Virus record (IMG/VR): IMGVR_UViG_3300032167_007519
Origin: a virus
Taxonomy: Duplodnaviria > Heunggongvirae > Uroviricota > Caudoviricetes
Direction: 5' to 3' (one strand)
Length of the DNA: 64,000 bases
The stretch's first letter is position 1. The number at the start of each line of letters is the position of its first letter. Shown in pieces: positions 6,090-55,214 of the stretch. The translations under genes were made by a program, and so were the position numbers. Under the pieces are notes generated by a model that saw nothing but the letters and a program-made list of their open reading frames with translations, searched no databases and was not told where the DNA came from.

Positions 6090-6758
6090 TTATCTTTGTA
6101 TAATTGGTATTTGTGCATTCTTTTCTAAAAGAGCTTCTTCAGCTTCTTCCGGAGTATAAAAGATAGTTTCTCCAAAGTCTTTGATAGGTAATTTTAAACT
6201 ACTATGTTTTGCTTTTAAAAATGTAGAGTTTTCTTCAATTACAATTTCAGAAACTGTAAACGGAATGACTTGGTAAGATTCATCAAAAGTTCCTTTATAT
6301 ACGCAATAAAGAGTGTCTCCTATATGGCAAGGCACAATGTAAGTCATAGGTTTTTTCCGGTCTCTGAGATATTCTAATCGTTCTAAAGCAGATTCGTGTG
6401 TAGAAAATAATTTATCCTTGCTAAAACGAAGAGGGATATCTTCCACACCATCTAAAGCAATCATCCATTCATTACCTTGTTTATAATATCTATCTATTGT
6501 ACATTCACGAATTTGCTCGTTATGCAAACAGTAAACTGTTTCGTGCATATGAAATGGAAATTTTGGAAGAAGTTCTTGTTTTTGCAAATCTCTTAAAAGA
6601 GCAGCTTCTGGTTTTATCGCTTGAAGATGATAAGTATTACTTCTCATATTTTTTGCAAAAGCTCTTAATTGCTGTTCGTTATCAAAATTTGTCTGGAACA
6701 TTGTTTCAGAATCCCAAACTTCATTCCAAATTCGAGTCATTTCTTCTACTGTAAGCAT
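6090..6758 (-). CDS. Hypothetical protein (222 aa)
   Basis: Tiling minus-strand ORF, tightly spaced. Confidence 0.5.
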   Translation of the reverse strand: MLTVEEMTRIWNEVWDSETMFQTNFDNEQQLRAFAKNMRSNTYHLQAIKPEAALLRDLQKQELLPKFPFHMHETVYCLHNEQIRECTIDRYYKQGNEWMIALDGVEDIPLRFSKDKLFSTHESALERLEYLRDRKKPMTYIVPCHIGDTLYCVYKGTFDESYQVIPFTVSEIVIEENSTFLKAKHSSLKLPIKDFGETIFYTPEEAEEALLEKNAQIPIIQR

Positions 6759-44737: not shown

Positions 44738-44932
44738 AGACGCAGAGATGGGATTTGAACCCATGCTATGAAAAAGGAGAATGGATAGTAAAAATGACAA
44801 AATTTACTTAAGGAGTTTATCAAAATGGTTAATTGCTAAATATATGTAATTCGGAGGTTTTAACAAATATGCAAAAAAAACTGCCCAAACACCTTTTTCC
44901 TAATATAGCTTCCTTTATTCTCTGCGATATTT

Positions 44933-49885: not shown

Positions 49886-50002
49886 ACATGGAGGTTAGAA
49901 AACCTAAAAAATGTTTAGTTTTATAATAGAGCTTCTAATTCTTTTATTTCAGCTCTTAATTCTCTCACTTCTTTTAAAAGAAGTTTTTTTTGCTTTAAAG
50001 AT

Positions 50003-50116
50003 TACGGGAGAGAGGATTCGAACCTCTCATATAATGAATCCTGACCATATGATTATTTCTAATCACAGATTCCCATGGAGAATGAGTCCATGCACTTACC
50101 AACCGTGAACTCCCAT
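50003..50116 (-). ncRNA. tRNA-like RNA with CAT anticodon-like loop and a ~47-nt structured extra arm (GAAA-tetraloop hairpin)
   Basis: Acceptor ATGGGAG/CTCCCGT, D-arm CAC..GTG, anticodon stem ATGGA/TCCAT with loop CTCATTC, T-arm AGAGG-TTCGAAT-CCTCT. The extra arm is GAATC..TGATTA-GAAA-TAATCA..GATTC. Confidence 0.45.
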
Positions 50117-50189
50117 AACTAACTTTTTGGTCGAAAGAACAAGAAAATCAAAATAACTACCAACGCTTTTGGAAGGAAACGTTGAGAAC

Positions 50190-50245
50190 CCAAATGCTTC
50201 CTAAGGGAATCGAACCCTTTTTTATGCCAATTAGGAAGCAGATAG
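50190..50245 (-). ncRNA. tRNA minihelix-like element (acceptor stem plus T-arm only)
   Basis: GCTTCCT ... AAGGG-TTCGATT-CCCTT AGGAAGC: a 7-bp terminal stem directly flanking a T-arm. Confidence 0.35.
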
Positions 50246-50329: not shown

Positions 50330-50503
50330 GAGAGGTGGCGGATTTGAACCGCCAATTAGTTCCTATCAGATGTAACAAACTGTTTACCTAAGGAGAAAAA
50401 TTTATGTCTACCCTGCCCAAAGAGTATACATGATAAGTCAAATACACAACACACTGGAGAAAAATAGATAGGACTAATTACCGTTTTCGTTATAAAAACG
50501 AAA
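50330..50503 (-). ncRNA. Structured RNA candidate with a tRNA-like T-arm, a long internal helix and a terminal stem (Y-RNA-like?)
   Basis: 3' end GGCGG-TTCAAAT-CCGCC then ACCTCTC pairs with GAGAGGA at the 5' end. Internal 13-bp helix AATTAGTCCTATC/GATAGGAACTAATT. Hairpin CGTTTTTATAACGAAAACG. Confidence 0.3.
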
Positions 50504-50830
50504 TTCCTCTCAAATAGTAAAGATGAGGAATGAGAAGTTTAAAAATGGATGAAGAGACTCCTCACTCCTTACCTTTTACTTACTTCGATTGGCATATCGG
50601 ACCAGTTTCGAAGAGTGCTTGCATTGCCGAAGCCCACAAGCGATGAAACTCTTACGTTGACGATATTTTAATAAGAGAATCATCTCATCCAATCTAATAG
50701 ACAAATTGCTGTTTGTTTCCCTATTGCGGATTGGTGTGTGAGATGGAGGCCGCTTTGTACAGGAAACATTAGGGGGCTCTGTTATGGACTTATTGCATAT
50801 TGATTTATGACTAATTGCCATATCCCTAGT

Positions 50831-50956
50831 AGAGAAGGTCGGGCTCGAACCGACGACAACCAGCTTGGACTTAATTTTTTCCTTGCTGTTAGTTTCACAC
50901 GTACATATGAAACATTTTTATAAGGGCTGATGCTCTCCCATCTGAGCTACTTCTCT
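50831..50956 (-). ncRNA. tRNA-like gene with a ~53-nt insertion in the anticodon loop (intron-like, contains hairpin GTTTCA..TGAAAC)
   Basis: Acceptor AGAGAAG/CTTCTCT, canonical D-arm TAGCTCAGATGGGAGAGC, T-arm GTCGG-TTCGAGC-CCGAC. Anticodon stem TCAGC/GCTGG encloses 60 nt in place of 7. Confidence 0.5.
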
Positions 50957-51021: not shown

Positions 51022-52497
51022 TTATGCTACTACCTTTTCGTAACGCTCACTGTTGACTACTGCCATCATGAGCTCGTAAGGTGTGGTTCCAATGTTCTCC
51101 ATTACCTGCTTAAAGATGTTTGGACTATATCCACTTACCATAGATACGCCTCTTGCACTCTTAGCAGCATGGAAGGTTGGATTCTTTGCGTTGACATTCC
51201 AGAATACTACCTGTGGAAGATGATATCCTGCTTCGTTATAACGCTTTTTCATAACATCGTAAAATGTCATGTTCTGCTCACGGTCAACACCCTCTACACA
51301 GTTAATCTGCATATCAGATACAATGACAATAGCATCTGGCATTTCTTCTGGAGTTACCTTACCCTTAATACAGGTCTTAAGTAATAACTCAAAAGCCGCT
51401 TCAAGGTCGGTAGAACCATCCCAATCAGCTTCCTTTACGATATTAAGATTATCCTTTAATGTAGCACCGTTAAGCTCTACATATTCCGGATGAGTGCTGA
51501 AAGTCATGAATACATCCTTTAAGTCACCCTTGTTTCTCTGAGCAAAATAAATTGCTAGAGCTGTAGCGACTTCAATTGGATACATACCTCCAGACTTATC
51601 CCAGCTCATAGAACCGGAAGTGTCACACATGACTAAAGCATTTCCCTTACATACATCCGGAAGAGACTTCCACATGGTTTCAAGGTCTCTGGTATAGTTG
51701 GTATTTACCTGATGAATAATGTCACATGGAGTAACAGTACCCATGTTCATCTTCTCTTCACCAGTTTCTACCTTCTGATTGAATTCTGTCCAACGAGCTT
51801 CATCATGCTTTACAAAAGCCTTACGGTTCTTAAGTAAAAACTTAGATGCACACTTGCTGTACTCAATCTCGTCCCACTTACCAGCACACATCTTTGCTTC
51901 CGGTAAATCTAAATACTTACGAAGAGAACGGAGCTTCTTTTTATAGTCAGACATGGTCTTGAAGGAATAACCTAACTTCTTGGCAGTTAACTTACCAAGC
52001 TTCTTTGTTTCTTCAGAACCAGAGTCCGGTGTAGCAATCCACTTAGCCAATAAAGAAATACTATTTCCCTTTGCTAAGTTCTCTAAGTCTAACTCAAACT
52101 GAGCCTTCATAAACTGCCACATTGCAGATTCTGCAGGAGTTCCAATCAAACAATATAAGTCCTTGGCACGACCAAATTCTAATACTGCCCAAAGGTTCTT
52201 CTCTACAGATGCTGGATTGATTTCAGCTAAATGACGGAACATATCCATAAAGGTATCTCTTTCTCCATATCCGCCACGAATGTCTCGGGTATAGAATAAT
52301 AACTTTACGGCAATATCCTTGTTTTCCTGAAAAGCTCTGCTAAATAACAGGTTCTTTTCTTCTGTAGTAGCCTGTCTCATTGCTCCGGCTCTACCAAATA
52401 AGTCTAGACAGGTGGAATCTGTGGTCTTTAAGGTATCACAACCATTCCATGTTTCTGTCCACTTTGCTTCGTTGTGAATAGCTTCACGTAAACTCAT
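51022..52497 (-). CDS. DUF2828-family protein: N-terminal TROVE/Ro60-like region plus C-terminal vWA domain
   Basis: vWA MIDAS VMCDTSGSMSW...DGSTD. Domain order and size (491 aa) match the phage DUF2828 family. The TROVE relationship is from memory, not a search. Confidence 0.55.
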   Translation of the reverse strand: MSLREAIHNEAKWTETWNGCDTLKTTDSTCLDLFGRAGAMRQATTEEKNLLFSRAFQENKDIAVKLLFYTRDIRGGYGERDTFMDMFRHLAEINPASVEKNLWAVLEFGRAKDLYCLIGTPAESAMWQFMKAQFELDLENLAKGNSISLLAKWIATPDSGSEETKKLGKLTAKKLGYSFKTMSDYKKKLRSLRKYLDLPEAKMCAGKWDEIEYSKCASKFLLKNRKAFVKHDEARWTEFNQKVETGEEKMNMGTVTPCDIIHQVNTNYTRDLETMWKSLPDVCKGNALVMCDTSGSMSWDKSGGMYPIEVATALAIYFAQRNKGDLKDVFMTFSTHPEYVELNGATLKDNLNIVKEADWDGSTDLEAAFELLLKTCIKGKVTPEEMPDAIVIVSDMQINCVEGVDREQNMTFYDVMKKRYNEAGYHLPQVVFWNVNAKNPTFHAAKSARGVSMVSGYSPNIFKQVMENIGTTPYELMMAVVNSERYEKVVA

Positions 52498-53677: not shown

Positions 53678-54145
53678 TTATTTGCGTTTTACGCGCGATT
53701 TTTTTAAATATTGACCCGTAAGTTTTCCATTCTTTACGAGTACTTTATGTATGTCACTTTCTACAATTTTACGCTCTTCGTCTAACAAATGAAAAGAATA
53801 TATGCCACACCTGTTTTTTAAATATTGATAAACTTCTTCTTGGGACCAGCAAAGTTTACGTAAAAAATCAATATTTTCGGGTGCTCGTTGTTGAGCTTCT
53901 CTTGATGCGAGGCCTATATTATTATTATATCTTGGTTTAAGCTTTAACCTAATTGCTATATCAAGGTCATGTATTTTTTCATTATCTGTGTTTATATATG
54001 AACCAAAAGCAACCATTTCGTCTACAAAACACGTAAACTCCGGATGTGATATTTCTTCATTAAGCTGCGAGATTCTTTCCAATAGTTCATTCAATTTTTT
54101 TTCTACTGTTTTTCTTTTGTATAACTTAGATTTACTCTCTGCCAT
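53678..54145 (-). CDS. Minimal nucleotidyltransferase (Pol-beta superfamily)
   Basis: AFGSYINTDNEKIHDLDIAI fits the GS-x(9-13)-DhD nucleotidyltransferase motif. Confidence 0.55.
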   Translation of the reverse strand: MAESKSKLYKRKTVEKKLNELLERISQLNEEISHPEFTCFVDEMVAFGSYINTDNEKIHDLDIAIRLKLKPRYNNNIGLASREAQQRAPENIDFLRKLCWSQEEVYQYLKNRCGIYSFHLLDEERKIVESDIHKVLVKNGKLTGQYLKKSRVKRK

Positions 54146-55214
54146 TGTAATTTCCTTTTTTTATGTTTTGTAAAACGTGAATTTAGATTAAAGTAGGGCT
54201 ATTTATTGTCATCTAGGTTGCCACCCTAAAATGTTTCTTACTCTCGGTCTTTCGTTCATATCTTTGATGCCCATCGGTTTCCTCTCAGATACACACATTT
54301 CAAACCTCATTGTGGATTCCTTATTTTCCGTAAGTTTTTTAGCGATACCGAACTTACAACACAAATACCAGTCACTAACGCTCTTTTAATTACCCTTTTG
54401 GGATAATTACCGTCTTTTCTTCGACGGACCTCGAATGGTTTATGCAAGAACCAATAAGCCTCTGTGTTTTGACATATCACAGAAGAAATATTCTCCTTTC
54501 GGATAGGTGGCTATAGGGGAATCGAACCCCATCATTGATATATTTAGCTCTCCACTTTTACACTACCGTCGTGTGGTCAGACTCGAACTGATTCCGGTGG
54601 TAAATATATCCCCGCTGGCAACCATCACTTCATAAGCAATTTTTAGGAATTACTATCAGTACAAGACTGTCAAACATCTGTCGCTGAACGAGCTCTTTTT
54701 TCAGAAATCTAAGCAGGTGGAATTTCCCCACAATGCATACTTAAATGATGTTCTTTACGTGGCCAGTTAGCCATATTTTGTTTTTTTACATAAAAATAAA
54801 ATCCTTAACTTACATGAAACGCTTTTTTTTTGAAGATTTTTCATAAAATTTTTCTTTTTCAAGTAGCAGAATTGCTGTATGTTTTACATTAAGAATTTTT
54901 TGACAATAGCTCAAATTTGGCTTTGTACATGTACGCTGCCAATAAAAAACTCTATCGGTTTTTGTTCGGTTGTTATCTTTATACAGGAAACTTTTTTTCT
55001 TCAACCCATTTGAATATGTAGTAGATTTGCTGTATGTTTCCCTAAAGATTGTTAGTTTACTTTTTACATGATGCTTTTTTGTTTGATTGCAAGAAGCAGG
55101 ACGCCTCTAATTGAATAATATGTTTTAGAATAGTTAATTCAAATTTTGCATTTTAGTTTTGCTGTAAGCATCACAAGTAACTATGTTAAATTATATTGGC
55201 TTTGACAGCCAAAG

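Follow-up and report, generated by a model that had tools for sequence, protein, structure and literature searches.

A probable class-II-style phage tRNA or tRNA mimic with an oversized variable arm, from a small, apparently undescribed family

The 64,000-nucleotide (nt) stretch of DNA analysed here over its whole length (hereafter the window), taken from the Caudoviricetes record IMGVR_UViG_3300032167_007519, carries at positions 50003–50116 an element shaped like a transfer RNA (tRNA) with a CAU anticodon and a very long extra arm. Judging from its sequence and from that of its relatives, this focal element is apparently a class-II-style phage tRNA or tRNA mimic, belonging to a small, undescribed family. 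That it is a real, selected gene of the tRNA family seems to us very probable. The fuller reading that we favour, a real gene for a non-canonical tRNA of class II layout that most likely decodes the Ile codon box, is one that we hold with about even confidence; the RNA is probably not the Y RNA of the Ro60-like protein encoded beside it. The gene is 114 nt long and is read 5′ to 3′ on the minus strand (50116→50003), with the following parts:

50003–50116, minus strand: whole tRNA-type gene (sequence, fold and same-phage copies), with its 5′ end at 50116, the discriminator A at 50003 and no encoded CCA.
50110–50116 with 50004–50010, minus strand: acceptor stem, AUGGGAG with CUCCCGU, 7 base pairs (bp) including one U-G; compensation among homologues at 6/7 pairs.
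50093–50107, minus strand: D arm, with a 3-bp CAC/GUG stem, the 9-nt loop GGUUGGUAA and a G in place of the expected A14.
50075–50091, minus strand: anticodon arm, AUGGA-CUCAUUC-UCCAU, with a 5-bp stem, CAU at 50082–50084, and U37 and C38 (A37 and A38 in homologues).
50036–50072, minus strand: variable arm, with a basal helix GAAUCU/GGAUUC and an inner helix GUGAUUA/UAAUCAU that together make 13 bp; the bulge AUGGUCA, 7 nt on the 3′ side, is at 50042–50048.
50049–50066, minus strand: inner hairpin, lineage-specific, capped by GAAA at 50056–50059; an 18-nt insertion relative to the loop GUGGUCA of the homologue in locus L116 (3548–3641).
50028–50035, minus strand: single-stranded 8-nt linker AUUAUAUG between variable arm and T stem.
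50011–50027, minus strand: T arm, AGAGG-UUCGAAU-CCUCU (sequence, fold and T-arm scan).

Written out, the 5′ half of the RNA is AUGGGAG UU CAC GGUUGGUAA GUG C AUGGA CUCAUUC UCCAU, the variable region is GG GAAUCU GUGAUUA GAAA UAAUCAU AUGGUCA GGAUUC AUUAUAUG, and the remaining 3′ part is AGAGG UUCGAAU CCUCU CUCCCGU A. Its minimum free energy (MFE) and centroid folds are alike, each a cloverleaf with an extra arm. A 7-bp acceptor stem, a D arm, a 5-bp anticodon stem, a 7-nt anticodon loop with U33, a 5-bp T stem and a loop of the T-psi-C type are present as in any canonical tRNA, whereas position 37 is a U instead of a purine, position 14 is a G instead of an A, and the variable region, which canonically does not exceed about 24 nt, reaches 47 nt between the anticodon and T stems (46 if C25 and G43 are paired). 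An earlier sequence-only reading had listed the acceptor, D and T arms, the CAU anticodon with U37, the pairings GAAUC/GAUUC and UGAUUA-GAAA-UAAUCA, and the 47 nt; we recovered all of these pieces, and the sequence assigns the element to the minus strand, which that reading had left unstated. The folding energy of the RNA is −33.6 kcal/mol (z = −1.95; 7 of 200 shuffles as stable) and that of the extra arm folded alone corresponds to z = −2.0, a support of only modest strength.

Stronger evidence against a chance structure than the folding energy comes from pattern rarity, strand bias, identical copies and compensatory changes in homologues. The combined pattern of D loop, anticodon and T loop has 0.00 expected matches in the shuffled window. 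A simple scan for a T arm with a 7-bp acceptor stem returns 16 candidates in the window, the focal element among them, and all 16 lie on the gene-bearing minus strand. Among contigs from different samples that encode an identical Ro60-like protein, nine carry the 114 nt at 100% identity and a tenth ends inside the element; these same-phage copies show zero variation and thus hold no covariation information. Standard detection fails nonetheless: ARAGORN does not call the element when run on the window, and the Rfam tRNA family (RF00005) does not match it at the gathering score, nor at E ≤ 10. The Rfam scan that the earlier reading had proposed as a check yields no family at the gathering score, its sole permissive match being a weak one to tRNA-Sec (22 bits, E = 0.26, for a gathering score of 47). 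A 65-amino-acid open reading frame (ORF) on the plus strand (49911–50108), overlapping the element, was set aside; it has no PHROG match and is antisense to all genes of the window.

Homologues are known in two lineages besides the focal one, namely an L021 type (loci L021, L107 and L109) and L116, and the contigs that carry the family are very large, phage-like and derived from samples of gut, rumen and faeces. A degenerate DNA pattern (D loop, CTCAT, a 40–70-nt gap and T loop) was scanned against 596 Gb of genomes (GTDB) and returned one true relative, L021, whose 216-kb contig had been assigned to a Lachnospiraceae metagenome-assembled genome; the second match of that scan, L022, was rejected as a chance match upstream of a normal tRNA. 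The L021 RNA lies 100 nt downstream of a transfer-messenger RNA (tmRNA) gene, and an MNT-HEPN gene pair follows it directly. Its D stem has 3 bp, its D loop is that of the focal RNA, its anticodon loop is CUCAUAA, and its variable region of 35 nt is composed of a 7-bp helix, a 12-nt loop and the linker AUUGUAUG. L107, L109 and L116 were reached through homologues of the neighbouring HEPN protein, not through RNA similarity. The first two are 94–95% identical copies of the L021 RNA; in the arm helix of L109, a C-G pair of the lineage is replaced by U-A, a compensatory change. L116 represents an independent lineage, on a 260-kb contig, with a HEPN protein that is 49% identical and with the anticodon GAU (loop UUGAUAA); its RNA reads GGUGGAA-UU-CUA-GGUUGGUAA-UAG-UACGC-UUGAUAA-CCGUA-G-AGAAGU-GUGGUCA-ACUUCU, followed by the linker AUUGUGUG and by GUGGG-UUCGAAC-CCCAC-UUCCACC-U. 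It has in common with the focal RNA all nine positions of the D loop (9/9), the 8-nt linker and the arm loop GUGGUCA, none of which was imposed by the search route that led to it. The homologues have canonical anticodon loops, with A37 (but G14), and the anticodons of the family, CAU in the focal element and the L021 type and GAU in L116, both belong to the Ile/Met codon box.

Other searches added no members to the family. A linker-based pattern and a D-arm pattern matched only unrelated sequences in IMG/VR, blastn of the focal element and of L021 against GenBank phages returned only T-arm fragments, and a flanking 968-amino-acid Ig-domain protein has no relatives in IMG/VR. Among 72 loci fetched with a pattern for the 3′ end of tmRNA, L060 and L094 alone contain other long-arm tRNAs, neither of them in the focal family. 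In L094 (1114–1248, plus strand), which is the same 268-kb phage as L001, this is a tRNA-Arg(UCU)-like RNA with a 67-nt variable region forming two hairpins (z = −2.66); in L060 (2802–2894, plus strand), it is a phage tRNA-Ile(UAU) whose arm measures 25 nt. It seems to be a recurrent feature of these phages that decoders of A-rich codons bear long arms.

Since MAFFT did not bring the family into register, pairs were counted on a structural alignment made by hand, fitted to the cloverleaf and comprising 5 sequences from 3 lineages. It contains 26 pairs, with 95.4% of the cells paired and compensatory changes in 19/26, and RNAalifold recovers from it the cloverleaf with the arm. All five helices keep their pairing across the homologues, including the basal arm helix, where 5/6 pairs show compensatory changes between the focal arm and those of L116 and the L021 type. 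Further common features are the 7/5 geometry (acceptor and T stems), a 6–7-bp variable-arm helix followed by an 8-nt linker of the form AUURURUG (in the homologues AUUGUGUG, AUUGUAUG and AGUAUAUG), and the D loop, which is GGUUGGUAA in 4/5 sequences and GGUUGGCAA in L107. The linker motif precedes 14 of 857 T-arm-like sites in 1.0 Mb of sequence, 5 of the 14 being the focal family and 7 lying in loci fetched by that very pattern.

The loop of the focal arm, GU[GAUUAGAAAUAAUCAUAU]GGUCA, equals the L116 loop GUGGUCA with an 18-nt insertion that forms the GAAA hairpin; this hairpin is specific to the focal lineage. The 6-mer UGGUCA is by itself common by chance, and its sharing carries weight only through its place in the arm. 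The question raised by the sequence-only reading, whether homologues conserve the structure of the extra arm, has a divided answer, in that the basal helix and the linker are conserved and the distal GNRA hairpin is not. Its proposal of a tRNA with an inserted module is supported in so far as the 18-nt insertion splits the loop of an arm that is already long in the family. Two other origins were considered and dropped: an intron, given that the insertion sits in the variable region, is far below the size of a group I intron and has no evident splice-restoring junction; and a repeated or mobile insertion, of which the window holds no second copy.

In the reading that we favour, the gene would be transcribed from the minus strand inside a phage tRNA/tmRNA island, and the RNA would be excised by host RNase P and RNase Z. 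As the gene does not encode CCA, this would be added post-transcriptionally; a CCA-adding enzyme is found in relatives of this phage. The molecule would take the L shape through its intact G18G19/T-loop elbow, and the arm would project out of the core as in class II tRNAs, so that its distal part would be free to grow without harm. The most likely job would be Ile-box decoding for an AT-rich phage, with the CAU form reading AUA after lysidine modification of C34, and the basal arm and linker would serve as a handle for recognition or protection. The homologue with a GAU anticodon is what would place the CAU copies in the Ile box and not in the Met box. As for the setting, the window has a GC content of about 33%, all of its genes on the minus strand and a tRNA/tmRNA island; its other tRNAs (ARAGORN) all read codons ending in A or U, AUA accounts for 87 of its 623 Ile codons (14%), and it also encodes an initiator-like tRNA(CAU) and a second CAU tRNA. 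That the focal RNA itself still decodes is possible, in our estimate slightly short of an even chance, and its U37 and C38 are compatible with a drift from decoding to the role of a tRNA mimic.

Several observations weigh against this reading. U37 and C38 in the focal copy and G14 throughout the family break near-universal tRNA rules, and the discriminator base varies, the A of the focal element being replaced by U in its homologues. Thirty of the larger ORFs of the window were examined, and none was recognised as TilS or IleRS. The family comprises only three independent lineages; the D loop, the anticodon and the long gap of L021 were demanded by the search pattern; and neither exact nor degenerate patterns of the element have a match in IMG/VR or in JGI metagenome contigs. 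Since the pattern does match the window, the scanned IMG/VR and JGI collections are taken not to contain this phage. The closest relatives, 82% identical in the Ro60-like protein, have no focal copy beside that gene. Moreover, the hand-made alignment was fitted to the structure, and the four standard helices “compensate” between any two tRNAs. Finally, in the MFE folds of L021-type RNAs (L021 and L109), the linker and the 5′ T strand (UAUGGU) pair with the 3′ strand of the anticodon stem (ACCGUA), at the expense of that stem. A pairing like that of the L021 type is possible in L116 (UGUGGU) and a weaker one in the focal RNA; according to these predicted folds, it could be an alternative conformer or a coincidence.

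Among known RNAs, class II tRNAs (Leu, Ser and Tyr) are alike in their 7/5 geometry, 3-bp D stem, helical arm between the anticodon and T stems, standard T loop and G18G19. They differ from the focal family in their anticodons (CAU and GAU not being those of Leu, Ser or Tyr) and in the length of the variable region (about 13–24 nt vs. 27–47 nt in the family). The conserved single-stranded 8-nt linker 3′ of the arm and G14, both family traits, further set them apart, as do U37 in the focal RNA and its escape from ARAGORN and from the Rfam tRNA threshold. Nematode tRNAs with a variable arm, the nev-tRNAs and nov-tRNAs of Hamashima et al., reportedly combine a class II body with an anticodon of a class I box, including Ile(UAU), and an arm of 15–20 nt, and are said to be charged with leucine; they are eukaryotic, and their likeness to the focal family is one of form that does not imply homology. 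Allo-tRNAs (Mukai et al., Nucleic Acids Res 2017, PMC5389517) have long arms, a predominant AUA anticodon and links to toxin-antitoxin systems, and occur in Clostridia, rumen bacteria and phages. The focal RNA resembles them in its long variable arm combined with a non-Ser anticodon, in the AUA box and in its weak likeness to the tRNA-Sec model, and the toxin-antitoxin setting is that of the focal homologues, not of the window copy. What defines an allo-tRNA, however, is an 8/4 or 9/3 acceptor/T branch together with a long D stem that ends in a tetraloop (PMC5389517), whereas the focal family has a 7/5 branch, a 3-bp D stem and a 9-nt D loop. Lacking both this branch and a tRNA-Sec-like D arm, the family is not a member of the allo-tRNAs. 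An 8/4 geometry was also tried on the sequences and rejected, the eighth acceptor pair being U-U in the focal element and G-A in L021. Limited searches of the literature turned up no report of a tRNA that combines a 7/5 branch, an Ile/Met-box anticodon and 27–47 nt of variable region.

A wider proposal, which we put forward tentatively and consider rather unlikely as a whole, is that of an unrecognised class of phage tRNA, in which the conserved arm and linker would be read by a phage or host factor. Such an RNA might be a private decoder of AUA, AUC or AUG that escapes host defences targeting tRNAs, or be charged non-cognately, or be the RNA part of a conflict system involving tmRNA and MNT-HEPN, and the GAAA arm would then be a functional docking module and not neutral growth.

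Unlikely too, though with several facts on its side, is a mimic that does not decode at all and acts in a conflict, as a decoy, antidote or substrate of a nuclease or nucleotidyltransferase directed at tRNA (the HEPN RNase with MNT, or a host anticodon nuclease), the long arm being the handle that marks it off from host tRNA. In three contig lineages, the homologues lie 0.05–1.4 kb upstream of an MNT (NTP_transf_2)-HEPN pair, which is often followed by a PARG-like gene, and those of the L021 type are just downstream of tmRNA:

L021 6088–6955, minus strand: MNT-HEPN region, with the focal homologue upstream and tmRNA just upstream of that homologue.
L107 and L109 3682–4498: MNT-HEPN region, with the focal homologue upstream and tmRNA just upstream of that homologue.
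L116 4684–5477: MNT-HEPN region, with the focal homologue upstream.

In the window, a small MNT-like nucleotidyltransferase (53678–54145, minus strand) is encoded directly upstream of the tmRNA, and U37/C38 and G14 would be unfavourable for decoding. Among published allo-tRNAs, those with long arms and AUA anticodons have been linked to toxin-antitoxin systems, and several of them proved inactive in translation (PMC5389517). Yet the link to MNT-HEPN is perhaps a mere matter of conserved gene order, given that the related contigs L111 and L114 carry an ordinary 74-nt tRNA(CAU) upstream of the pair, in the spot held by the long-arm gene in L021, L107 and L109. Moreover, 3.5 kb separate the window element from the MNT-like gene, no HEPN gene came to light in the window, and the homologues keep canonical anticodon loops.

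We see only a slight chance that the RNA is a class II tRNA charged with Leu or Ser under an Ile/Met-box anticodon, which would make it a missense or recoding tRNA comparable to allo-tRNAs and to the nematode variable-arm tRNAs. The 3-bp D stem together with the long arm is the class II layout, the focal A73 is the Leu discriminator, and a single substitution would turn CAU into CAA or CAG and GAU into GAG, all of them Leu anticodons. The D loop of the focal family resembles the UUGGUA of tRNA-Leu, for which the tRNA-Leu of the window may be compared. SerRS and LeuRS do not read the anticodon (PMC5389517). Against it, the discriminator varies between A and U, an arm with an 8-nt 3′ linker is unlike those of Leu, Ser and Tyr tRNAs, and Leu or Ser at AUG codons would be harmful.

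A decaying tRNA pseudogene with a junk insertion would account for U37/C38, for an insertion that is missing from the homologues and for the silence of both tRNA finders, in a window where tRNA fragments and oddities are frequent. It is nevertheless improbable, because every helix is intact even though the stems have fully diverged from those of the homologues, which argues for long-term selection for pairing, while the insertion itself is a perfect hairpin coaxial with the arm and the D loop, the T loop and the linker are conserved.

The last alternative is the one contemplated by the sequence-only reading, a Y-RNA-like regulatory RNA; it would associate with the Ro60/TROVE-fold protein encoded next to it, the bulged arm serving as putative binding site, and we consider it improbable. 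The protein itself is encoded as follows:

51022–52497, minus strand: DUF2828/DUF7788 protein with a Ro60/TROVE and vWA fold, 0.9 kb upstream of the focal gene (Pfam, PHROG, AlphaFold2 and Foldseek).

Pfam recognises DUF2828, DUF7788 and VWA in its product and PHROG places it in an “RNA-binding protein” family, but a sequence comparison with the Protein Data Bank (PDB) finds no match to Ro60. The top 12 PDB matches returned by Foldseek for its AlphaFold2 model (pLDDT 86.9) are all Ro60/TROVE proteins, with E values of 5e-10 to 3e-5 and TM-scores of 0.46 to 0.62; Ro60 from Thermus phage phiLo is one of them. The TROVE neighbour that the earlier reading had noted is thus real at the level of the fold. 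Contigs encoding homologues of this protein reach 720 kb, a size suggestive of huge phages.

The position of the element 0.9 kb downstream of this gene speaks for a Y RNA, and so do the tRNA-like domains of bacterial and phage Y RNAs (PMC4201824; PMC12135203) and the arm itself, a helix whose large bulge gives it the general outline of a Ro-binding site. In Y RNAs of the YrlA type, however, Ro binds a stem formed by the two ends, a closed stem-loop takes the place of the acceptor, and the motif GNCGAAN0-1G is present (RF02553; Chen et al. 2014, PMC4201824). The focal RNA shares with YrlA the tRNA-like D and T arms and a Ro60-fold gene nearby, but it has an open acceptor stem with a discriminator and a full anticodon arm, and its 5′ and 3′ ends form no Ro-binding stem. 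The motif is absent, CGAA occurring once, within the T loop (context UUCGAAU), and Rfam YrlA (RF02553) and Y_RNA (RF00019) are unmatched at E ≤ 10. Moreover, the element is absent from every examined locus encoding a Ro60-like protein at 57–82% identity (L001, L014–L019 and L023–L026), while its own homologues adjoin tmRNA and the MNT-HEPN pair, with no Ro60-like neighbour detectable by BLASTP. Finally, the site immediately downstream of the Ro60-like gene is occupied by another, well-conserved RNA module in 9 related loci.

These module RNAs, present in 2–5 copies per locus in the relatives, are mostly tRNA scaffolds (Leu-like, Thr-like and others) in which a module of 40–70 nt stands in place of the anticodon loop or between the D and anticodon arms. 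The module consists of a helix, GUUUCAUG/UGUGAAAC, enclosing a variable insert, followed by NNACAGCAA (the ACAGCAA tail). Its sites are:

Window 50830–50956, minus strand: tRNA-shaped RNA whose anticodon loop is replaced by the GUUUCAU..GUGAAAC-ACAGCAA module; Rfam tRNA at 47 bits with a 60-nt insertion, and 43.7 bits with the covariance model R1 described below.
Window 50700–50772, minus strand: module RNA.
L001 6845–7335; L014 11530–12519; L015 11531–12512; L017 11619–12434: module RNAs.
L018, L019, L023, L024 and L026: module RNAs.

In an alignment of 27 sequences, the module helix is 98.6% paired, with compensatory changes in 4/8 pairs, values that 0 of 500 shuffles reach. R1, a covariance model of the module, has 29 matches with E < 1e-8 in 9 loci, all on the gene strand and within about 1.1 kb of the Ro60-like gene; two of its copies are in the window, at 50877–50918 and 50700–50772 (43–44 bits). 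Rfam has no family for these RNAs. They are probably the RNA partners of the Ro60-like protein, candidates for binding that would amount to a Y RNA built the other way round, and they may be more novel than the focal element. The latter resembles them in being a tRNA scaffold with a large bulged hairpin insert in the same intergenic region of the window, but its arm has neither the GUUUCAUG/UGUGAAAC helix nor the ACAGCAA tail, and R1 does not match 50003–50116 at E ≤ 10 with filters off.

Some further sites of the window touch on the module RNAs. An 81-amino-acid ORF (50576–50821, minus strand) overlaps the module RNA at 50700–50772, has no Pfam, NCBIfam or PHROG match and is probably not a gene. 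Weak R1 matches occur on the minus strand at 6663–6704 (20.1 bits, E = 0.0015), 54866–54955 (17.9 bits, E = 0.007) and 55021–55065 (13.6 bits, E = 0.17); two of the three are in the tRNA island and may be diverged copies of the module. A 125-nt tRNA-shaped RNA at 60817–60941 (minus strand) combines a good D arm with an “anticodon” stem of 10 bp (AUCUUAAUUC/GAAUUAAGAU) and a loop of 52 nt that includes AACAGC and CAGCAAU; it may be a degenerate relative of the module RNAs.

The tRNA repertoire of the window shows other oddities. At 50195–50239 (minus strand), a 45-nt “minihelix” has only a 7-bp acceptor stem and a T arm (GCUUCCU-AAUUGGCAUAAAAA-AGGG-UUCGAUU-CCCU-AGGAAGC-A; Rfam tRNA at 25 bits) and is followed by a terminator-like hairpin at 50160–50185; a comparable element, with a weak match to the tmRNA model, is found in L094 (2906–2984, plus strand). 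A T arm with the 3′ acceptor strand UACCCCA (57215–57243, minus strand) stands right after an HNH ORF (57258–57755), downstream of a complete tRNA-Gln (57781–57853) with a similar acceptor, and looks like a duplicated tRNA 3′ half left by the insertion of a homing endonuclease. The tRNA-Lys(UUU) at 57971–58053 (minus strand) has a 12-nt hairpin in its variable region (GAAG-UAUU-CUUC), unusual in a class I tRNA, and the initiator-like tRNA(CAU) at 56581–56654 (minus strand) has the anticodon loop CCCAUAA, with C33 instead of U33. More T-arm-like sites, in which no full tRNA is recognisable, lie on the gene strand at 50336–50354, 54518–54528, 44751–44761 and 58196–58262 (all minus), the last being a 67-nt acceptor-plus-T-arm candidate.

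As tRNA finders miss the focal gene and its relatives, the tRNA repertoires of these huge gut and rumen phages, and the inferences on codon supply or recoding drawn from them, are incomplete. The focal gene is now separated from the module RNAs, which are much better conserved and make the better candidates for a novel type of phage Y RNA. With its 7/5 branch, its Ile/Met-box anticodons and 27–47 nt of variable region, the focal family stretches the known limits of tRNA architecture, and raises the question of whether so oversized an arm is tolerated by RNase P, the CCA-adding enzyme, the synthetases, EF-Tu and the ribosome, or whether it is the mark of a conflict mimic, as its link with tmRNA and HEPN/MNT may indicate.

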